Positions 39,997 to 59,663 of a stretch of DNA of 64,000 nucleotides are shown in pieces (positions within the stretch are counted from its first letter, which is position 1; every line of letters starts with the position of its first letter). The translations under genes were made by a program, and so were the position numbers. The notes below the pieces were generated by a model, which was not told the DNA's origin, did not search any database, and was given only the letters and a program-made list of their open reading frames with translations. Source of the stretch: a virus. The stretch is taken from IMG/VR virus record IMGVR_UViG_3300025914_000009, positions 1 to 64,000 of that record. One strand, given 5' to 3'.

Positions 39997-40329
39997 TTAG
40001 GATTCATCATCCGATTCGAAAGATTCACCTGTTTCATTATAGACAGGCCAGTCTCCCTCACATAGTCTCATTTCAACAACTGCTTTCTCCCATCTTTCAC
40101 AGAGTTCTTCAAAGGATTCAGCTACCAGGATCTTCTCTCCATCATACATCTGGACTATGCTCTTAGTAGAAGTATATCCAATTACCTTATATATTTCCCC
40201 TACCGGAAGGGCCATTGCTCTCCATACCCATTGTTTGGACTTAGCAATGATGCCCATATCCATTTCCTCCAGCTCCATGTCTTCCTCCGAGACAAGCTTT
40301 ACCTTGGCTTTCAGTTTTAATAGACTCAT
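39997..40329 (-). CDS. Small protein with LytTR/FlbD-like beta-beta-beta-alpha pattern
   Basis: LPVGEIYKVIGYTSTKSIVQMYDGEKILVAESFEELCERW. Confidence 0.45.
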   Translation of the reverse strand: MSLLKLKAKVKLVSEEDMELEEMDMGIIAKSKQWVWRAMALPVGEIYKVIGYTSTKSIVQMYDGEKILVAESFEELCERWEKAVVEMRLCEGDWPVYNETGESFESDDES

Positions 40330-42917
40330 TATTTAGATTTTGATTTCTTTGCCTGGGCCTTCTTAGCCTTGATATCCATTCTCTTCATCTGGAGCTGAGC
40401 TTGGATTTTCTCCTTATCTAGCGCGATCTTTCTGAGCTCCATCGCAATATAATCATTCGACTCTTTGGCCTTCTGCTGGATTTGAGATAGTTTAAGTTGG
40501 TATTCCCTATCCTTACCAATGCTTTCTTGTGTAAGTCTATTAGCTTCTGCGATATCTTCATCTCCTGCATTTTCAATTGGGTTCATTGCACTTCTTTCTT
40601 TGGCTGCTGCTGCTATTAGAGCAATCTCCTTCTTATTAAGTCTATCCAGCTCATTTTGCCCGGCTTCAAATTCTTTATCTAATTGATCCTGGATGGCTGC
40701 CTGTTCCTGCTCATGCTGGAACATAGCTTGCTGCTGCTGTTGATCCTGTTGCTTAAGCTGTTGTTCTTGTTGCTGCATTGCTTCCATTTTCTCCTTTAAG
40801 GACTTGAATACTTGCTTCATTGTCCTGATAGAGTTGGTAGTATATAGTACAGATATTTCATATGGAGTAGCTCCATTCTGTAGCATTGGTTGAGCAAGCT
40901 GTCTGAGATCTTCAAAGGCTTTTTGATCCTGGGCTCTGGTAGTAACAAATACCTGTAGATCCCTAAGGGTGATGTCTTCAGAGTTAACTCTAATGAAGGC
41001 TTGTTCTCCTTCTGTATTGATATAGGAAATGGTTGACTCTGGTTTCTTTACTTCTATATGCTGAACTGCATCCAGAATAGCTTGATATACATCATTTAAT
41101 ACATACTCATGTTGTGCAAAGTATGGTTCTGTCTGAGCATAGGATTGAGATAAGGCAGTATTTGTACCTGTAGCAGTTTGAGTTGCAGCTACTCCACCTG
41201 TTCTTTCTCTGGTAATACCTACCAGTTCCCATGCTTCCTGTTTAAGCTGCATAGCCAGAGTGTATCTGCTTTGGATTTCAGCAGTCCTTGTCCAGTCTAT
41301 ATTCTTAAACATGTTGAAGTTAGATGGACTCTTCAGGTTTTCAGGAGAGTCATCTACTATAACAACCCCTCTTTTTCTGGCCTCCTGCTCCCAGATATCC
41401 AGTGCATCCTGAGCATCCCCATCCTTAGGGATAGGAATGTGCCTCATAGACATAAGGTACACATTACCAATTTCCTTCTCCAGCAGCTTATAGAGCTGGT
41501 TCATACATACATTGTACAGAATCTGATAAGGTTTTAGTAGGTCAATTAAGCTCTTAGCTTCATTTATGTTCTTGATCTCATGAACTACTCCAATAATAGG
41601 GCAGTAGTTCAGAAGTTCAAAGGGCTCCACATTATATACATCAGATCCAATCTTGTAGCCTTTATACCATTGGTTTATATAGTTCCACTCGATTGATACC
41701 TGGTTTGGTACTCTCTTATAAGACTCATCTACTAAAGTGGTCTGTTCTACTCCCTCTTCGTCCTTAAATATCAGTCTCCCCACTTTCTTTTTTGAGCACC
41801 AATAGGCTTGAACTACTACATACTTATTACCAAAAGTATTTACATTGGATGATAAGCCAAGAAAGTCATTAAGAGGATCCACGTTCTCTTTGAGCATTGA
41901 CTCAACCAGAAGTCTTTGTTGTACTATAAATGGGGAATAAGTATCATATTTGATTGATTCCCATCCACTTACGTTAGGATTCTCAAAGTTCGATTCCCTT
42001 GGGGAGAATAGAGAGAGTTCTCTTACACCTTTTCTTAAGTGATCAATCTCTTTCTTATCCAGATCAAATCTCTCAATAATCTCACTAAGCTCCATTACAT
42101 GCACTGTCCCTGCAGCAAAGGCATCTTTAAGATACTTCTTATCAGGAAGAGTCAAGAACCATACATTCTTTGGGTTTAGATTTTCTACTCCTACCCCCAG
42201 CTTTGAGTTAGTCTCATATATGTGATAGAACTCTCTTGAGCAGATTAAAAGATCTCTAAAGCAATCTTCTGAGATCTCCTTCATGTTCATCTGCATCTTC
42301 ATGGCTTCCAAAACATGATTTCCCCATTTCTCTGCAGTAGAAGTATAGTCAGTCAGATACTCTGATACCTTCTCCATTGTAAGTTGTTCCAGATCCTGAT
42401 CATTAGAAGGACTGCCTTGTCCTTGTACTCCTGACTGAACAGCAATCTTAGACTTAGCTTGTTCCATTATGAATTGCTGTAATATCTCAGTCTTGAATTG
42501 AAGCTCCTCATTTTTTGAATCATCATCAAAAGCCTTAACCCTAGCTACATCTGGTCTTCTTGTAAGCTCTCCTAACATGGTATTCATAGGAGGGTTTAAG
42601 ATAGGATAGTGCTTCACATAGTTAGGGAGTTCTACATCTCTTACTACTGTATCTGCAAAGGATCTAAGTTCAGGATCATCTGTATCATTAATATAGAAAT
42701 CCTGTGGTCTGAGAATCCCCTTTACCAGGTTATAGTTATTTACAAAGGTATCTTTACCTTTAATAAATTGAGAGTAGGCCACATTGGCAAAGTAGTCCAT
42801 ATTGGACTTTATCCAGTCATCTGTTCCTTTCTCTGCTTCTGGTACGAACTGATCAGGATAAATGTTCCACCTTGCCCAGTCAAGGTTCTGATCCTTTGAG
42901 TGAATGATTATAGGCAT
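40329..42917 (-). CDS. Portal protein
   Basis: 862 aa; HYPILNPPMNTMLGE, SLIDLLKPYQILYN, VGITRERTG; coiled-coil C-terminus; follows terminase. Confidence 0.9.
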   Translation of the reverse strand: MPIIIHSKDQNLDWARWNIYPDQFVPEAEKGTDDWIKSNMDYFANVAYSQFIKGKDTFVNNYNLVKGILRPQDFYINDTDDPELRSFADTVVRDVELPNYVKHYPILNPPMNTMLGELTRRPDVARVKAFDDDSKNEELQFKTEILQQFIMEQAKSKIAVQSGVQGQGSPSNDQDLEQLTMEKVSEYLTDYTSTAEKWGNHVLEAMKMQMNMKEISEDCFRDLLICSREFYHIYETNSKLGVGVENLNPKNVWFLTLPDKKYLKDAFAAGTVHVMELSEIIERFDLDKKEIDHLRKGVRELSLFSPRESNFENPNVSGWESIKYDTYSPFIVQQRLLVESMLKENVDPLNDFLGLSSNVNTFGNKYVVVQAYWCSKKKVGRLIFKDEEGVEQTTLVDESYKRVPNQVSIEWNYINQWYKGYKIGSDVYNVEPFELLNYCPIIGVVHEIKNINEAKSLIDLLKPYQILYNVCMNQLYKLLEKEIGNVYLMSMRHIPIPKDGDAQDALDIWEQEARKRGVVIVDDSPENLKSPSNFNMFKNIDWTRTAEIQSRYTLAMQLKQEAWELVGITRERTGGVAATQTATGTNTALSQSYAQTEPYFAQHEYVLNDVYQAILDAVQHIEVKKPESTISYINTEGEQAFIRVNSEDITLRDLQVFVTTRAQDQKAFEDLRQLAQPMLQNGATPYEISVLYTTNSIRTMKQVFKSLKEKMEAMQQQEQQLKQQDQQQQQAMFQHEQEQAAIQDQLDKEFEAGQNELDRLNKKEIALIAAAAKERSAMNPIENAGDEDIAEANRLTQESIGKDREYQLKLSQIQQKAKESNDYIAMELRKIALDKEKIQAQLQMKRMDIKAKKAQAKKSKSK

Positions 42918-42920
42918 CTG

Positions 42921-45017
42921 TTATATAAATAATTTTGATCTTCTTCTACCATTATTATATCTGATTGGAGAAGAGTTTGAGAAGTCGATTACTTTGTTTG
43001 TGCTTTTTTGTCCCTTGAAGTAAGCTTCAAATCTGGGATCTTTCTTTTCTGTGGATACTACGAACTGTGGATTAAGATGATCCGCCAGGGCAATGGCCAG
43101 CTCCGCAGCTACTATACGGTCATAGTTCCCTTCCTCTGAGTTGAAGTTAATAATTTCTTCCAAGAGCATAGGATCAAATACTCTGGTTACTCCCAGGGTC
43201 TCTATATTCTTCTCCTCTTCTCTGAAGATGACATCATCCAGATAAGATTTAAGTAGACCATCCAGGTGGTTCCTGATCCTATCACTCGATCTATGAATAC
43301 CATAATCCCTTCTAACTGAGGTATTTGGAACTATTTCTCTAAGCCAGCTCGGTTGAGGGGCCAGGTATCTTGCAGCTTCTCCTTTCTTGAGCATATAATC
43401 TATAAAGCTATACTCATCATTTTCACAAAGGGTATAGGCATTATAGTACTTAATGAGGAGTCTGGCAGTCTCATTCCACTTGTCTTTACTATCTGGCCTG
43501 GCTACATAAGAAGCTACAAATAGGTTTTGATATCTATCCGAGGCAATGTCATGTACCCTTTTAAAGATATACACTGCCCCAAGGGAGTCTGAATATTCAG
43601 ATCTACTCTGTCTATAAGGGTCAACTCCAGCTGTATAGAGTCCGAATGGTGGTTCATCATCTATTGGGAACTCCCAAATGACTGGAGGAGCATCAAGTGA
43701 AGTTGTGCTATCTGCAGGAAACTTGCTGATTGGTAGTTTATCACTGAACTTATGGCAAATCTTTTCTCCATCATGATATAAGTCTACCGGAGTACCAGTC
43801 TTCCCAAGGGCAGTAAGTCTATTCTTTTGAGCTTTAGCAGCTTCGATATTAAAGTCATTCTTTGTAAGAACCAGGAAGCTATCAGATGGAACCAGAGGCC
43901 AGAAGGCTTTGAACTTCAATACAGTCTTCTGATTACCAGATTTTATAGCTCTTGCATATTCTTTTTCCCACCACTCCCTAGCCTTCTCATAGTTGGTTAC
44001 CAGAATGGTAATTCTTTCTAAGTCAGGGTGTTGTATTCCCAAATAATCAGATAGCTTCATTGGATCCTTGTACTTGATCTTAGCCATTAAGGCATCAATG
44101 AATCTACCCATCTTTGTTCCTGGTATTTCAGGATTATCAAAGGGGAGTATGTTATAGGCTTCAGGGTGAAGGAACACTTCAGATGCCTCTTTACCTTTTT
44201 CCATATCACCCCCAGTGCCTGCTATCATAGCAAGACAGGAAGGTTTATCTTCTTTGGATGTACCAGACCACCAGGCACCTTCAGAGTCTTTGAAACAGGC
44301 AATGAAGTTTCTAATGGTACCAATTTCATCTATAAGATGGAAACCAGGTCTAGCTCCTACTGCTGCATCGCTCTTTGATCCTTCTTCAAAGTTTCTTATC
44401 TGTATAGATGATTGAGAAGATAAAGGAGATGTTATCCCTGTCTTCTTATCTTTCCAACCAGCCTTTATTTCTTTTTTCCAGTCATTAACAATCCTTTGCT
44501 TCTGCAGGATTGGATGTAGATTGATCAGACCATCTTCTACCTTATCAGTAGCAAGCTTGATATATGTACCATTACCTGCACTGATGATAGCTTCTGATTT
44601 GTCAAAGAGAGTGTACTGATAACCAGCTCTTGAGCCAGCCATGATAGATTTCCCGAAGTCACGAGATCCAACCAGGGCATAGAACTTACCTTTCTGTTCA
44701 CATTGAGTAAAGTCATCAGCTATTATCCACTCAATGTCCCTGAGATAGGGAGTATCAATAATTCTGATCTTCTTATTAAGTCTTTCATTTTCAATGTACA
44801 TGGCGATTTTCCAGTACACTGTGTGCCAATAGAGCCATCCAGAAATGTATACTTTCCCATCTGCCAGATAAAAGCCTTCCTTCATCCTACGCTTTTCTTC
44901 AGTCCAGTACTCCCTAAAGGTTTCCATAGCTGCTTCATCTGTAGGATCGTAAATAGGTTCTACCTGGTCGGGGAACCAAATGTTTTTAGTTTTCTGGGTA
45001 TACTTCTGGTCTATCAT
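42921..45017 (-). CDS. Terminase large subunit
   Basis: Walker A GSRDFGKS; Walker B HLIDEIG; GTGG; nuclease AGVDPY and YDRIVA. Confidence 0.92.
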   Translation of the reverse strand: MIDQKYTQKTKNIWFPDQVEPIYDPTDEAAMETFREYWTEEKRRMKEGFYLADGKVYISGWLYWHTVYWKIAMYIENERLNKKIRIIDTPYLRDIEWIIADDFTQCEQKGKFYALVGSRDFGKSIMAGSRAGYQYTLFDKSEAIISAGNGTYIKLATDKVEDGLINLHPILQKQRIVNDWKKEIKAGWKDKKTGITSPLSSQSSIQIRNFEEGSKSDAAVGARPGFHLIDEIGTIRNFIACFKDSEGAWWSGTSKEDKPSCLAMIAGTGGDMEKGKEASEVFLHPEAYNILPFDNPEIPGTKMGRFIDALMAKIKYKDPMKLSDYLGIQHPDLERITILVTNYEKAREWWEKEYARAIKSGNQKTVLKFKAFWPLVPSDSFLVLTKNDFNIEAAKAQKNRLTALGKTGTPVDLYHDGEKICHKFSDKLPISKFPADSTTSLDAPPVIWEFPIDDEPPFGLYTAGVDPYRQSRSEYSDSLGAVYIFKRVHDIASDRYQNLFVASYVARPDSKDKWNETARLLIKYYNAYTLCENDEYSFIDYMLKKGEAARYLAPQPSWLREIVPNTSVRRDYGIHRSSDRIRNHLDGLLKSYLDDVIFREEEKNIETLGVTRVFDPMLLEEIINFNSEEGNYDRIVAAELAIALADHLNPQFVVSTEKKDPRFEAYFKGQKSTNKVIDFSNSSPIRYNNGRRRSKLFI

Positions 45018-46648: not shown

Positions 46649-46988
46649 TTCCTGCCAGGTTTATTTGTAACTGAATATCTTTTGAAAAGTCAAGAGCAAT
46701 CTTTGGATTCACTCTATATTTCATATCTATCTGTACAAGAAAGCCAGCCTTCACAAGTTCCTGCTTCATATTCTCCAGAGATGCAAGTGAGCTATTAAAC
46801 ATCTCAACAAACTCCTTTCTAGCCGCAGGGGATGTTATGCTCCCTCGGGCAGCTGTGAATGCCAGGAGGTATAGCTGCTTTTGTGGAAGTCTTACTTCAT
46901 TCAGAGCAAGCAGTACAGAATAATACTTTATTGCCTTTTCCACCTCAGTAGCTACCTCTCTTCGTATTTTCTGCACAATTACCTTCAT
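46629..46988 (-). CDS. Winged-helix (RepL-like) DNA-binding protein
   Basis: RKEFVEMFNSSLASLENMKQELVKAGFL...YRVNPKI. Confidence 0.65.
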   Translation of the reverse strand: MKVIVQKIRREVATEVEKAIKYYSVLLALNEVRLPQKQLYLLAFTAARGSITSPAARKEFVEMFNSSLASLENMKQELVKAGFLVQIDMKYRVNPKIALDFSKDIQLQINLAGSAKESE

Positions 46989-47007
46989 GTAGCTTGGTTT
47001 TCTTTTA

Positions 47008-47015
47008 CAAAGTTA
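47008..47015 (-). promoter_or_regulatory. -7 box of the promoter for the packaging operon
   Basis: TAACTTTG about 20 nt upstream of ATG 46988; no clear -33. Confidence 0.5.
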
Positions 47016-47062
47016 TGGGCTTTTTTGGAAGTAATATATAACTCTTTGGGATGTAATGCTAT

Positions 47063-47094
47063 AAAAAGCAAAAATCCTCCCAATATGAGAGGAT
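47063..47094 (-). terminator. Terminator closing the tRNA array
   Basis: ATCCTCTCA-TAT-TGGGAGGAT-TTTTGCTTTTT. Confidence 0.8.
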
Positions 47095-47098
47095 CTTG

Positions 47099-47170
47099 AG
47101 GCAGATATCTGAATCGAACAGATGTATAGGGCTTTTGCAGAACCCGACCTTTCCACTTGGCTAATCTGCC
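47099..47170 (-). tRNA. tRNA-Cys(GCA)
   Basis: Cloverleaf; anticodon loop CTGCAAA; U73. Confidence 0.9.
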
Positions 47171-47175
47171 TTATG

Positions 47176-47247
47176 CACGTATCGGGGGAATCGAACCCAG
47201 TCCTCCTACAGTTTTGGAGACTGCTTGGCCACCATGGCCTGACACGT
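47176..47247 (-). tRNA. tRNA-Trp(CCA)
   Basis: Loop CTCCAAA; G73; weak T-stem. Confidence 0.85.
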
Positions 47248-47253
47248 GTGTAG

Positions 47254-47324
47254 ACTACCCTGCAAGATTCGAACTTGCGTTCTAACATCCGTAGTGTTGA
47301 GTCCTTCCACTGAACGAAGGGTAG
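47254..47324 (-). tRNA. tRNA-Arg(ACG)
   Basis: Loop CTACGGA; T-loop TTCGAAT. Confidence 0.9.
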
Positions 47325-47397
47325 TGGGGTGGAGTGCAGAGTCGAACTGCCTTACCTGGTTCACAGCCAAGTCCATTCACCGAATTGGTATCTCCAC
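47325..47397 (-). tRNA. tRNA-His(GTG), encoded CCA, atypical acceptor/T junction
   Basis: Loop CTGTGAA; C73-CCA. Confidence 0.8.
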
Positions 47398-47399
47398 AG

Positions 47400-47471
47400 A
47401 TGCCCCTGGAGGAATCGAACCTACCATCATGAGATCCAAAAGCTCACGCCCTTCCATTGTGCTAAGGGGCA
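47400..47471 (-). tRNA. tRNA-Gln(TTG)
   Basis: Loop TTTTGGA; U1-A72; 31-39 mismatch. Confidence 0.85.
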
Positions 47472-47482
47472 TTAAAAAAATG

Positions 47483-47554
47483 TGGTACAGAGTGGACTTG
47501 AACCACCAACGCCCAGCTCTTCAGGCTGGCGCTCTACATTGGAGCTACTGCACC
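47483..47554 (-). tRNA. tRNA-Phe(GAA)
   Basis: CCAGC-CTGAAGA-GCTGG. Confidence 0.9.
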
Positions 47555-47559
47555 ATATG

Positions 47560-47631
47560 AGCCTGAGCAGGAACTCGAATCCTGTTCTGATGCTTACAAG
47601 GCAACTGCACCACCATCAGTGCTTCTCAGGC
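47560..47631 (-). tRNA. tRNA-Thr(TGT)
   Basis: Loop CTTGTAA; GCC acceptor start. Confidence 0.88.
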
Positions 47632-47636
47632 TTATG

Positions 47637-47712
47637 TTGGGTGAATAGGATTCGAACCTACGCTTTCAGCCTCCCAAAGGCTGCCGGAAAAACCTGGCTT
47701 CCGTACCACCCA
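47637..47712 (-). tRNA. tRNA-Pro(TGG)
   Basis: CAGCC-TTTGGGA-GGCTG; A73. Confidence 0.9.
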
Positions 47713-47716
47713 ATAT

Positions 47717-47752
47717 AAAAGAAAAACCCCCAGTCTTGGTAGAAAGGGGGTT
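47717..47752 (-). terminator. Attenuator terminator of tRNA operon A
   Basis: AACCCCC...GGGGGTT plus TTTCTTTT, 4 nt before tRNA-Pro; 5' arm complementary to the leader ORF. Confidence 0.8.
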
Positions 47753-47773
47753 GACATGCAAGAGCTTTATATC

Positions 47774-47848
47774 CTATACATACATGACAACTCCCTTCCC
47801 TGGTTGAGGGCAGAAGGTAAACCACGTATGACGAAATACTTTATTCAT
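47774..47848 (-). CDS. Leader peptide A, MNKVFRHTWFTFCPQPGKGVVMYV
   Basis: 25 codons between promoter and terminator; codons 5-16 match the 8 downstream tRNAs. Confidence 0.85.
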   Translation of the reverse strand: MNKVFRHTWFTFCPQPGKGVVMYV

Positions 47849-47852
47849 AATG

Positions 47853-47884
47853 CAAATATATGGTGAATATTTTAATCCACCAAA
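47853..47884 (-). promoter_or_regulatory. Promoter of tRNA operon A
   Basis: TTTG-N20-TATATTTG, full Bacteroidota consensus. Confidence 0.85.
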
Positions 47885-47890
47885 AAAAAG

Positions 47891-47975
47891 TTGCACAGGT
47901 CAGATTCGAACTGACAAAGGCTAAAGCCCCGAGTTTTACAGACTCAGAAGGATCTCCCACTCCTGTCGCAGTGCA
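47891..47975 (-). tRNA. tRNA-Tyr(GTA)
   Basis: Loop CTGTAAA; long variable arm; A73. Confidence 0.85.
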
Positions 47976-47982
47976 ATGTAAG

Positions 47983-48065
47983 AGGAGAGCAGTGGCCCTG
48001 ATCCACATCCCCGAGGGAACAGTCAGCTTAGCAGGCTGCTCCTACATCGTGTAGGTTTACTCTCC
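47983..48065 (-). tRNA. tRNA-Ser(GCT), non-canonical T-loop
   Basis: GGAGAG acceptor; loop CTGCTAA; variable arm; T-loop ATCAGGG. Confidence 0.78.
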
Positions 48066-48072
48066 TTATAAG

Positions 48073-48165
48073 AGGAAGGCTGAGGACTCGAACCCCACTC
48101 CTGCTCATCGCCGAGCCCTAGTTTTCAAGACTAGTCGCCGCTCCTGTGCAGCTGCATAACCTTCC
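48073..48165 (-). tRNA. tRNA-Ser(TGA)
   Basis: CTAGT-CTTGAAA-ACTAG; long variable arm. Confidence 0.9.
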
Positions 48166-48171
48166 TTATAG

Positions 48172-48245
48172 TATCCCTGGTAGGACTTGAACCTACAGAA
48201 CTCAGATTTTAAGTCTGATATGGTTACCTATTACATCACAGGGAT
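48172..48245 (-). tRNA. tRNA-Leu(TAA), short variable loop
   Basis: TCAGA-CTTAAAA-TCTGA; A73. Confidence 0.85.
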
Positions 48246-48250
48246 AAGTG

Positions 48251-48323
48251 TACCGAGGATGGGATTCGAACCCACACTTTTCAGTTCCTAAGACTGTTGC
48301 CTCTCCCGTTGGGCTACCAAGGT
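48251..48323 (-). tRNA. tRNA-Leu(TAG), short variable loop
   Basis: Loop CTTAGGA; A73; two acceptor mismatches. Confidence 0.82.
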
Positions 48324-48327
48324 ATGT

Positions 48328-48362
48328 AAAACAAAAAACCCAGCTGTAGAAACAGACTGGGC
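48328..48362 (-). terminator. Attenuator terminator of tRNA operon B
   Basis: GCCCAG(T)CTGT-TTCT-ACAGCTGGGT plus TTTTTGTTTT. Confidence 0.85.
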
Positions 48363-48385
48363 TAAAAAATAAAGTCTAATGAACT

Positions 48386-48454
48386 TTACATACTATACCC
48401 AGCCTGTCTGTGTAACAGGAGTGAACTGGAATAGTATGATAGAAGATTGAACAT
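48386..48454 (-). CDS. Leader peptide B, MFNLLSYYSSSLLLHRQAGYSM
   Basis: 23 codons; codons 4-14 are all Leu/Ser/Tyr. Confidence 0.88.
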   Translation of the reverse strand: MFNLLSYYSSSLLLHRQAGYSM

Positions 48455-48458
48455 GATG

Positions 48459-48490
48459 CAAATGTAATAACTCTTTTTGAATTTTCCAAA
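48459..48490 (-). promoter_or_regulatory. Promoter of tRNA operon B
   Basis: TTTG-N20-TACATTTG. Confidence 0.85.
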
Positions 48491-48499
48491 TAATTCTAG

Positions 48500-48573
48500 T
48501 GGAGCTAAAGAGAATCGAACTCTTCTCAGGCTCCTTGCAAGGGAGCTTCGCCAGCCTTGGAACATGTAACCCC
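48500..48573 (-). tRNA. tRNA-Ala(TGC)
   Basis: Loop CTTGCAA; G3:U70; A73. Confidence 0.92.
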
Positions 48574-48679
48574 TAAATCTGAAGCATAACCTTTCTACCT
48601 TCTCTGTAAACAGCTTTATTACAGTTATGAAATTGTATACCAGTAGATTGTACATGCTCCAGAGGTTCTTTCAAACCAG

Positions 48680-48752
48680 TTGCCTGAGGTGGGATCGAAC
48701 CACCAGCCTTCTTCGTATCAGGAAGTTGCTCAGACCATTGAGCTACCAGGCA
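48680..48752 (-). tRNA. tRNA-Ile(GAT)
   Basis: Loop CTGATAC; A73. Confidence 0.9.
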
Positions 48753-48844
48753 ATTTGATATAGGGGAAGAGGTGGTTCTTACACAGCCCACCTTCAGAAG
48801 TGTGCTTCTTCCAGGTTTTCACCCTCCCCCACTATATCTTCTAG

Positions 48845-48918
48845 TTGTCCCTAAGGGAGTTGAACCCTTGATCTTCTCATTATGAGTGAGCTGCTCTGAC
48901 CACCTGAGCTAAGGGACG
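48845..48918 (-). tRNA. tRNA-Ile2(CAT), probable lysidine type reading ATA
   Basis: CCCTTAGCTCAG..GGTCAGAGCAG..ACTCATAAT resembles bacterial Ile2; C4-G69 and C5-G68. Confidence 0.75.
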
Positions 48919-48925
48919 ATTTGAG

Positions 48926-48998
48926 CCGAGAGTGGGGGATTCGAACCCCAACCTTCACCTTGACAGGGTGATACTGCAGCCATTACACCACACCCTCG
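48926..48998 (-). tRNA. tRNA-Asp(GTC)
   Basis: TCACC-CTGTCAA-GGTGA; G73. Confidence 0.9.
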
Positions 48999-49087
48999 GA
49001 TTAGCCACATGCCGGACAATTACTTGACTGCTGTTAGAAACCAGCTGGTTTCCATCTTTTTTGTCCGCATGTAGCTTTAATTATTTG

Positions 49088-49161
49088 TACTCCCAGTGGG
49101 AATTGAACCCTACATTTTTACCTTGAAAGGGTAATGTCCTTACCATTTAGACGATGGGAGC
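49088..49161 (-). tRNA. tRNA-Glu(TTC)
   Basis: TTACC-CTTTCAA-GGTAA. Confidence 0.9.
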
Positions 49162-49182
49162 ATAGCTCCTCACCCTCCTTTA

Positions 49183-49395
49183 TTACATTAGCCATCTTAT
49201 CAATAGTTTAGCCTCCATTACTGGAAGAAATTTCGCATCCTGTATGTCCCCCAGGGGAATGGAGAAATTAATGATTCCATCAATAGAACCTGTCCAAAGG
49301 TTAGTCATGTACAGCATCCTTTCTTTATCCACATACAAAAGCTCAGCCTTTGGATTTTTCTTATACAACTCCTTTTTAATTTCATTTAGTTCCAT
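49183..49395 (-). CDS. Hypothetical 70-aa protein inside tRNA operon C (start MELNEIKK)
   Basis: The track start overlaps tRNA-Gly; ATG 49395 lies just 3' of it. Confidence 0.75.
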   Translation of the reverse strand: MELNEIKKELYKKNPKAELLYVDKERMLYMTNLWTGSIDGIINFSIPLGDIQDAKFLPVMEAKLLIRWLM

Positions 49396-49396
49396 G

Positions 49397-49467
49397 AGCA
49401 CCAACAGGGAGTCGAACCCTGCTCTCAGGCTTGGAAGGCTAGTGCATTACCGAAATGCTTCTGGTGC
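49397..49467 (-). tRNA. tRNA-Gly(TCC)
   Basis: Loop CTTCCAA; U73. Confidence 0.88.
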
Positions 49468-49515
49468 ATAGAGGGGGACAGGTTATTTAATCCTTTAAGG
49501 GACTCCCCCAGACCC

Positions 49516-49593
49516 TGGTTGCGGGAGAGGGAATCGAACCCTCGTAGTTCAGCTTATGAGACTGAGCTGGCACCATCTCCAGTCTACCCCGCA
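49516..49593 (-). tRNA. tRNA-Met(CAT), fMet-like acceptor, encoded CCA
   Basis: TGCGGGG...TCCCGCAACCA; loop CTCATAA; lacks the three G-C anticodon-stem pairs. Confidence 0.85.
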
Positions 49594-49841
49594 ATCTTTA
49601 ATTGTTTCTTTTCCTCCTCTGTCAAATCATAATCCTCTTTTACCAAAGTCAAAATTAAGTTAAGTTCCTCAGCAAATCTAATTCTTCCTCTAAAGACTAT
49701 TTCATCAAACCTCTTATTTCTGATAGACACTATACTAAAATCATGAGAGTCATTTTTTAATATAGTTATCTGATAAGAATCATCATGAAACTGCCATGGC
49801 AACCTCTGCTCGAAACCTAGTTCTAACAAGTGCTCTTTCAT
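49584..49841 (-). CDS. Hypothetical 85-aa protein inside tRNA operon C
   Basis: ORF fills the Asn-Met spacer; its stop lies inside the tRNA-Met 5' end. Confidence 0.7.
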   Translation of the reverse strand: MKEHLLELGFEQRLPWQFHDDSYQITILKNDSHDFSIVSIRNKRFDEIVFRGRIRFAEELNLILTLVKEDYDLTEEEKKQLKIAG

Positions 49842-49842
49842 G

Positions 49843-49915
49843 AGGACAGTTTAGGGATCGAACCTAAGACCTAAGAGTTAACAGCTCTTTGCTACTGCCA
49901 CTGAGCTAACTGTCC
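49843..49915 (-). tRNA. tRNA-Asn(GTT)
   Basis: AAGAG-CTGTTAA-CTCTT. Confidence 0.9.
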
Positions 49916-49959
49916 ATTTCCAGTTTTGTACTCCACGCAGATACTGGTAAACTGACCTG

Positions 49960-50031
49960 AGGACTTACAAGGAATCCAACCTTGATAGCTTGCTTAGAAG
50001 GCAAGAGCTCTATGCATTGAGCTATAAGTCC
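49960..50031 (-). tRNA. tRNA-Arg(TCT)
   Basis: CTTGC-CTTCTAA-GCAAG; T-loop TTGGATT. Confidence 0.85.
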
Positions 50032-50034
50032 ATG

Positions 50035-50107
50035 TTGTCCCACTTAGAATCGAACTAAGGTCGCTAGTTTGTAAGACTAGAGCACTCAACCACTGTGCTA
50101 TAGGACA
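50035..50107 (-). tRNA. tRNA-Val(TAC)
   Basis: CTAGT-CTTACAA-ACTAG. Confidence 0.9.
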
Positions 50108-50113
50108 ATCTTG

Positions 50114-50185
50114 TTCCCCTGGAAGGGCTCGAACCTTCAACCTTCTCCTTAAGAGGGAGTAGCTCTACCATTAAGCTACAGAGGA
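50114..50185 (-). tRNA. tRNA-Lys(CTT)
   Basis: Loop CTCTTAA. Confidence 0.9.
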
Positions 50186-50197
50186 ATTTTATCTCTG

Positions 50198-50268
50198 TAC
50201 CCCCACCAAGGATCGAACTTGGTTCCACTGGTTAAAAGCCAGTTACTTCACCATAAAGCTTTGAGGGT
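50198..50268 (-). tRNA. tRNA-Lys(TTT)
   Basis: ACTGG-CTTTTAA-CCAGT. Confidence 0.9.
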
Positions 50269-50274
50269 AATTGT

Positions 50275-50311
50275 AAACAAAAATCCCCAGAGCTTATGGG
50301 CTCCAGGGACT
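50275..50311 (-). terminator. Attenuator terminator of tRNA operon C
   Basis: GTCCCTGGAGC-CCATAA-GCTCTGGGGAT plus TTTTGTTT. Confidence 0.88.
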
Positions 50312-50334
50312 CTTGTTTGCTGTTTATAAACCTG

Positions 50335-50415
50335 TTAATTAGCAGACAGTGGAATCCCTGGAGCAGATTTCTCTGCACCTCTTACAATCCCATTATCCAC
50401 TATTGAGTAAAACAT
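50335..50415 (-). CDS. Leader peptide C, MFYSIVDNGIVRGAEKSAPGIPLSAN
   Basis: 27 codons; codons 5-16 match the downstream tRNAs; A-rich 5' UTR. Confidence 0.85.
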   Translation of the reverse strand: MFYSIVDNGIVRGAEKSAPGIPLSAN

Positions 50416-50438: not shown

Positions 50439-50470
50439 CAAATATAATACCACTTTTTGACATGGCCAAA
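50439..50470 (-). promoter_or_regulatory. Promoter of tRNA operon C
   Basis: TTTG-N20-TATATTTG. Confidence 0.85.
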
Positions 50471-50913: not shown

Positions 50914-50945
50914 CAAAGGTAATACGTTATAGTGGAATTTCCAAA
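50914..50945 (-). promoter_or_regulatory. Promoter with ACTATAACGTA in its spacer
   Basis: TTTG-N20-TACCTTTG. Confidence 0.75.
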
Positions 50946-59590: not shown

Positions 59591-59663
59591 GGGTGTGTAG
59601 CTCAATGGATAGAGTGTCTGACTTCGGATCAGAAAGTTAAGGGTTCGAATCCCTTCATGCCCA
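59591..59663 (+). tRNA. tRNA-Arg(TCG)
   Basis: Canonical cloverleaf; TCTGA-CTTCGGA-TCAGA. Confidence 0.92.

Follow-up and report, generated by a model that had tools for sequence, protein, structure and literature searches.

The DNA analysed here is the first 64 kb (positions 1 to 64,000, hereafter the window) of the virus record IMGVR_UViG_3300025914_000009, which is 124,983 bp long and complete according to CheckV. Our subject is the transfer RNA (tRNA) array at 47098-50268 on the minus strand, upstream of the genes for the large terminase (TerL; 42921-45017) and a P22-like portal protein (40329-42917). The array is divided into three modules, each of which runs from a promoter motif through a mini open reading frame (ORF) of 22-26 codons and a hairpin with a T-run to a block of tRNA genes. 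In a TerL comparison Leptolyngbya phage Lbo-JY46 came closest among the named phages (34.8 % identity) and Crassvirales came next, at about 27 %; the phage is a distant relative of the Crassvirales. Megablast against named phages gave no close relative and distant blastn matched single tRNAs only.

The array contains 25 tRNA genes for all 20 amino acids: 21 are called by ARAGORN at default settings and four are divergent. Block 1 (48497-50268, minus strand) carries Lys(ttt), Lys(ctt), Val, Arg(tct), Asn, Met, Gly, Glu, Asp, Met, Ile and Ala(tgc), as identified by ARAGORN at default or relaxed thresholds and by Rfam. Block 2 (47890-48323, minus strand) carries Leu(tag), Leu(taa), Ser(tga), Ser(gct) and Tyr(gta), from default or relaxed ARAGORN calls and alignment. 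Block 3 (47098-47712, minus strand; ARAGORN and Rfam) carries Pro(tgg), Thr(tgt), Phe(gaa), Gln(ttg), His(gtg), Arg(acg), Trp(cca) and Cys(gca), and is followed at the end of the array by a terminator-like hairpin found by a simple terminator scan (47071-47097, minus strand). The divergent genes, all on the minus strand and all missed by ARAGORN at default, are Ala(tgc) (48497-48573), Ser(tga) (48072-48165), Ser(gct) (about 47982-48065) and Trp(cca) (about 47176-47247). All four are backed by relaxed ARAGORN thresholds and by alignment to default-called genes of relatives; Trp(cca) also has a weak match to the Rfam tRNA clan and is a default call in the related contig L002. Rfam gave sub-threshold matches, to tRNA-Sec or tmRNA models, for three of the four and none for Ser(gct).

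The leader of module 3 lies in the spacer 47713-47889, ahead of block 3. The sequence-only reading had proposed that it is a leader-peptide attenuator in which codons 5-16 name all of the downstream amino acids and nothing else, and in which a part of the leader frees or sequesters one arm of the terminator according to the position of the ribosome. Translation gives an ORF of 24 codons with an ATG start and a TAG stop (47774-47848, minus strand). Its codons 5-16, the sensor run FRHTWFTFCPQP (47801-47836, minus strand), are the twelve that had been named; they are exclusively Phe, Arg, His, Thr, Trp, Cys, Pro and Gln codons and cover 8/8 of the tRNA identities called downstream by ARAGORN and Rfam. 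Folding predicts a 1:2 hairpin in the free RNA (47769-47839, minus strand), in which the sensor codons pair with the 3' end of the ORF, and a terminator (47717-47751, minus strand) made up of a hairpin at 47726-47751 (-13.3 kcal/mol) and a T-run at 47717-47725 that ends 4 nt from tRNA-Pro. Segment 2 (47781-47798, minus strand) is the 5' strand of the predicted antiterminator in the minimum-energy structure of the stalled state, and segment 3 (47743-47760, minus strand), the 3' strand, overlaps the 5' arm of the terminator. The two segments lie where the pairing had been placed, and by manual count they form 16 pairs (2 of them G-U) with 2 mismatches.

The other two modules have the same anatomy. 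Module 1 has a leader ORF of 26 codons with an ATG start (50335-50415, minus strand; translation and folding), the run IVDNGIVRGAEK at codons 5-16 (50368-50403) and a terminator hairpin (-17.3 kcal/mol) with a T-run at 50275-50310 on the minus strand. The leader ORF of module 2, also starting with ATG, has 22 codons (48386-48454, minus strand); its run, LLSYYSSSLLL at codons 4-14 (48413-48445), is made of Leu, Ser and Tyr only, and the terminator hairpin (-14.7 kcal/mol) with its T-run is at 48327-48363 on the minus strand. In the three modules the terminators are 4-6 nt ahead of the first tRNA.

Each module is preceded by a promoter-like motif (TTTG, 20 nt, TAnnTTTG) on the minus strand, found by motif scan. 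The motif is at 47853-47884 in module 3 and at 48459-48490 in module 2, in both of which the ATG follows 4 nt later, and at 50439-50470 in module 1, in which the ATG follows 23 nt later. A fourth copy (50914-50945, minus strand) precedes an ORF of 139 codons that lies shortly upstream of the array. The exact TTTG-N20-TAnnTTTG motif occurs four times in the 124,983 bp, every time at the array, in comparison with a mean of 0.8 in shuffles. We take the motif to resemble the Bacteroidota consensus. We claim no host from it, as it also precedes leaders in a phage with a cyanobacterial host, and a host search in bacterial assemblies gave a single match, on a contig of a metagenome-assembled genome, without usable host information. 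As a separate observation, an 8-pair hairpin (47861-47882, minus strand) fills the -33/-7 spacer of the module 3 promoter, just after tRNA-Tyr and an eight-T run. It is terminator-like in the simple scan and might terminate module 2 transcripts or modulate the promoter.

The runs of the three window leaders (12, 11 and 12 codons in modules 1, 2 and 3) cover 9/10, 3/3 and 8/8 of the identities in their blocks. In 200,000 random partitions of the amino acids with the group sizes kept, the summed length never reached their 35; the maximum was 28. The genome has 865 small ORFs, of which no more than one per set attains the observed run length; for the set of module 3 this one is presumably the leader itself. 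A chance match is excluded. An Rfam search of 46900-50400 (gathering threshold or E <= 1) returned only tRNA-clan and weak chance matches, with no leader, T-box or cis-regulatory family.

We calculated the probability of the terminator helix, P(terminator), from the ViennaRNA partition function with a 28-nt ribosome footprint shifted codon by codon, in 18 modules. In module 1 P(terminator) is 0.96 in the free RNA, falls to a mean of 0.16 (minimum 0.00) when the A-site is within the run, and is 0.66 with the ribosome at the stop codon. The corresponding values are 0.94, 0.13 (minimum 0.00) and 0.95 in module 2, and 0.95, 0.21 (minimum 0.00) and 0.96 in module 3. When the segment between run and terminator was permuted (60 shuffles per window module), 0/60 shuffles were as low in any of the three. 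The free-RNA structures are the 1:2 hairpin and the terminator, and termination is predicted without translation. In module 3 the duplex of segments 2 and 3 is the minimum-energy structure when the footprint is in the run and excludes the terminator. With the footprint at the stop, segment 2 is covered, as had been suggested, and the terminator is predicted to return. The predicted switch holds under five footprint definitions, which shift its edges by one or two codons only. If the switch window is defined from folding only, 10/10, 9/9 and 9/10 of its codons (modules 1, 2 and 3) are inside the run defined from the tRNAs.

In this equilibrium model, 9 of the 18 modules switch completely. We also folded RNA truncated before the 3' arm of the terminator, which mimics the moment of decision. 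With a stalled ribosome the 5' arm is then captured in 18/18 modules (0.71-1.00); capture in shuffles is 0.40-0.67, and 0-4 of 25 shuffles reach the observed value. With the ribosome at the stop, capture is under 0.5 in 11/18 modules. The distance from the stop codon to the terminator stem is 22-36 nt in all 18.

Relatives were screened with a blind pipeline that takes a terminator adjoining a tRNA, selects the best small ORF upstream and records its longest run of residues that belong to the block. The loci were 52 TerL-anchored viral contigs, 191 from two pattern scans, 38 from metagenomes, one from genome assemblies and the Lbo-JY46 record. The pattern scans with leader cores gave five loci with downstream tRNAs among the 191, two of them re-finds, and the matches to the second pattern were all due to chance. 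The first 10 array-bearing loci yielded 20 terminator-adjacent modules; this count leaves out the isolated relaxed tRNA calls L006:1192, L037:3885 and L038:6841 and one call overlapping a default call. The summed in-set run of the 20 modules is 222, in comparison with 74.4 +/- 7.3 for random sets of equal size (maximum 102), and 0/2,000 random sets reach it. Runs of 8-23 codons are present in 16/20 modules and two give no signal: one is a terminator in L006 that lies behind a 48-codon basic ORF, the other is in L013. A block's own leader contains 131 of 140 block identities (Fisher odds ratio 13, p 7e-19, not corrected for relatedness), and in 5/6 phages the true pairing of leader and block outscores every swap of sets within the phage. 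In total there are 12 distinct carrier contigs: the window, L002, L006, L009, L025, L027 (to which L028 is nearly identical), L037, L038, L073, L254, L256 and Lbo-JY46.

Where the content of a block differs between phages, the leader differs with it. In L037, whose TerL is 34 % identical, Asp and Asn tRNAs are in the Pro block; the leader of this block, with the run NNWHNTFNNFTPDQQD, gains Asp and Asn codons and is without Arg and Cys, and the first leader drops Asp and Asn. In L025 and L027, Leu and Tyr (in L027 also Ser) join Pro, Gln, His and Arg in the block and the leader follows; the L027 block has 13 identities and its 23-codon run uses exactly those 13. In the cultured phage Lbo-JY46 the Cys tRNAs are shifted to block 1; leader 1 is Cys-rich and the run of the Pro block is Cys-free. 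This run has 11 codons and covers 7/7 identities, which 0/500 random sets reach. L073, L254 and L256 are further cases in which the leader follows the block. Between module 2 of the window and module 2 of L002 the order of residues in the run differs and membership of the set is retained, which argues for selection on codon content and not on the peptide. Column-based covariation of the antiterminator was not used, as the five leaders of the module 3 type are too diverged and are gapped 3' of the run. The reading of module 3 as a leader-peptide attenuator is supported, all its computable elements hold, and it is strengthened by the two sister modules in the array and by the co-variation in 11 other phage contigs.

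Several arrangements in the relatives deserve mention in their own right. L025:5394-5502 and L027:2527-2634 carry their own promoter motif and a short Glu-rich frame ahead of tRNA-Glu; the frame enters the tRNA-Glu gene without a stop or terminator, and the next L027 leader begins 14 nt after the tRNA. At L038:3716-3941 the order is promoter, tRNA-Met(cat), leader with terminator, and block, an order in which one tRNA would escape attenuation. At L006:5689-5835 the 48-codon ORF, which is very basic, divides block 1 ahead of Ala and Val with a terminator of its own; despite this division the first leader retains Ala and Val codons. In the Lbo-JY46 record (L252, reverse complement, 2093-2240) there are adjacent Cys(gca) and Cys(aca) calls where relatives carry Lys(ctt) and Val(tac), and no Val or Tyr tRNA was detected in this phage, though its leaders contain Val and Tyr codons.

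Taken together, the data suggest that three trp-type attenuators, mediated by the ribosome and acting on transcription, control the phage's own tRNA genes and give a demand-driven supply. From the sequences and the folding models we put the probability of this at about three in four. Each module would be transcribed from its dedicated promoter, with a ribosome translating the mini-ORF close behind the polymerase. With every aminoacyl-tRNA of the run in good supply, the ribosome would pass the run; segment 2 would be either covered or in a duplex with segment 1, and the terminator would form and end transcription ahead of the tRNA block. Shortage of even one listed tRNA would stall the ribosome within the run and leave segment 2 available for pairing with the terminator's 5' arm, and read-through would allow the whole block to be made. 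As the run lists codons decoded by the downstream tRNAs, the products would relieve the stall. The outcome would be negative feedback, or supply driven by demand, at the level of the tRNA isoacceptor. The shortage might be brought about, for example, by host shut-off or by cleavage of host tRNAs by anticodon nucleases, and the purpose may lie in economy, in timing or in answering defences that cleave tRNAs.

The codons themselves bear on what is sensed. Arg codons in the runs are in the box read by the block's own Arg tRNA in 13/13 cases (AGA with tct; CGT, CGC and CGA with acg), and the sole block with both Arg tRNAs has both types of Arg codon in its leader. CGN makes up 11 % of the Arg codons in the long ORFs of the phage. 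For the 219 run codons, the block provides a Watson-Crick reader for 75 and a standard wobble reader for 99. Five Ser codons appeared at first to have no reader (214/219 being otherwise read) and are accounted for by hidden Ser tRNAs, that of L002 resting on alignment only.

It is possible that the same attenuator hardware senses general amino-acid starvation, that is charging, and that the blocks are switched on in the starvation response of the infected cell. Classical attenuators respond to charged tRNA, charging and abundance are not separable by sequence, and the run of window module 2 has an AGT codon without a reader at the default tRNA calls. Against this stand the agreement of the Arg codons with the isoacceptor, the rare CGN being used only where Arg(acg) is present, and the fact that the block tRNAs can read all 219 run codons if the hidden Ser genes are counted in. 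Moreover, extra tRNA is no cure for a missing amino acid. We regard sensing of charging as unlikely.

Less probable still is the alternative that the mini-ORFs encode functional micropeptides, or are translated for some other purpose, and that the hairpins are leaky terminators or processing signals. The position and length of the ORFs are indeed conserved (21-30 codons from the start used in folding). However, it is membership of the set and not the peptide sequence that is conserved, the composition varies with the tRNA block, and the run coincides with the structural switch window. The least probable alternative, an element acting as RNA only, with the codon run touching tRNA anticodons in the manner of a T-box, or a coincidence of composition, is contradicted by the lack of any Rfam match, leader or T-box family included, in the three leader regions, by runs that are in frame with start and stop at a fixed distance from the terminator, by the nulls that exclude chance, and by the absence of a pipeline signal in three outgroup phages and two unrelated large arrays.

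A number of observations weigh against attenuation by tRNA shortage. Some runs have out-of-set residues in or beside them, as in L038 (Ser, Thr), L025 (Ser), module 1 of L073 (Leu), L254 (Cys) and Lbo-JY46 (Val, Tyr), and the related arrays of L013, L261, L267, L274 and L289 are without any module. The equilibrium model gives only a partial drop in 4/18 modules and no switch in 5/18 (L002@6644, L006@6583, L009@1668, L025@4922 and L037@5759), and in Lbo-JY46 only the Leu module switches. The simple terminator scan missed all three module hairpins of the window, that of module 3 having a long loop region. Within the genome the promoter motif occurs at the array only; it is also present in a cyanophage, and termination at the hairpins by the polymerase that uses it is putative. 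The ATG is 4 nt behind the -7 box in 8/18 modules, which implies a leaderless or nearly leaderless mRNA whose translation is assumed. Among the 219 run codons, 35 need a putative reading of pyrimidines by U34 and five are ATA, which need a putative lysidine-type tRNA (a CAT tRNA is present). Finally, each sensor codon is present only 1-3 times, and sensitivity may therefore be below that of attenuators with tandem repeats.

Leader-peptide attenuators are known from the trp, his, leu, thr, ilvGMEDA and pheA operons of enterobacteria. The phage modules share with the attenuators of these amino-acid operons a short ORF with regulatory codons, the 1:2, 2:3 and 3:4 hairpins and an intrinsic terminator before the regulated genes. 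Folding predicts the terminator when the RNA is free or the ribosome is at the stop, and the antiterminator when the ribosome is stalled. Several amino acids would be sensed together, as in the ilv and thr leaders. In contrast, the regulated genes are tRNAs and not genes for amino-acid biosynthesis or synthetases, which makes the modules a variant of the attenuator rather than a member of any described leader family. Their run is a catalogue of 3-13 identities, each present 1-3 times, where the amino-acid operons have tandem repeats of one or two. Additionally, the element is in a phage, and in modules 2 and 3 the start codon is 4 nt past the promoter box. What is new is thus not the hardware, which is known, but its target, its logic and the sensor of the catalogue type.

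Two other systems can be compared. The pheST attenuator with its pheM leader likewise controls a component of translation by the speed at which codons for its own substrate are read, but it acts on a synthetase gene and senses one amino acid, whereas the phage modules would control tRNA genes and sense many identities. T-box riboswitches also sense the status of a tRNA and choose between terminator and antiterminator; they bind one uncharged tRNA without translation and regulate synthetase or amino-acid genes, in contrast with the phage sensor, which is an in-frame ORF. Full-text searches of the accessible literature gave no account of leader peptides ahead of tRNA genes, and an older account, for example in the T5 tRNA-region papers of the 1980s, is possible. 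The tRNA-Phe genes pheU and pheV of Escherichia coli were considered as a precedent with an attenuator-like leader and rejected: in K-12 the promoter abuts the tRNA gene, with no leader ORF or terminator.

Large tRNA arrays are found upstream of the terminase gene, as in the window, in crAss001 and the uncultured phage cr111_1 as well. With the same pipeline, T5, crAss001 and cr111_1 gave no spacer ORF with an in-set run of more than four codons and none that was distinct from random sets, the lowest value being 17/300 for a 2-codon run in T5. The many small ORFs between the T5 tRNAs were considered as a precedent, but the pipeline finds no leader signal in them. Two unrelated large arrays found by chance (L092 and L121) likewise gave no signal. 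In Bacteroides phage crAss001 (L058), at about 1640-1681, a similar promoter motif and a five-codon frame (Met, Ile, two AGA Arg, stop) stand directly ahead of tRNA-Gln and tRNA-Arg without a terminator, which may be chance.

The modules bear on how phages regulate their tRNA genes and on what these are for (compensation of codon usage, host shut-off or escape from tRNA-cleaving defences). They imply that tRNA supply may be regulated by demand, and the leader would state which tRNAs the phage considers limiting. We think it somewhat more likely than not that the phage meters the host tRNA pool by isoacceptor and replaces only what ribosomes lack; these would then be the first tRNA genes under ribosome-mediated attenuation, and the modules a built-in sensor for tRNA-targeting immunity. 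Leader-peptide attenuation would be extended from metabolic operons to the translation machinery and to a catalogue sensor for as many as 13 identities. Such co-variation, with regulatory codons tracking the content of an operon, amounts to a rare natural experiment. The design is present in a cultured phage-host pair, Lbo-JY46 and Leptolyngbya boryana, and is thus directly testable, and the modules could serve as compact sensors of tRNA availability.

Some minor features of the phage remain to be recorded. The interior of block 1 has two ORFs on the minus strand, one of 85 codons (49584-49841) and one of 73 codons (49183-49404), without a Pfam or PHROG match; the same sites in relatives have gaps of similar size or different ORFs (L002, and a 175-codon ORF in L006). 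Two tRNAs that stand alone, one at 59591 and one beyond the window at genome position 76009, are without a leader ORF. The latter is a tRNA-Gln(ttg) call (76009-76103, plus strand) of 95 nt, which is over the normal length of a tRNA and may contain an insertion or intron.
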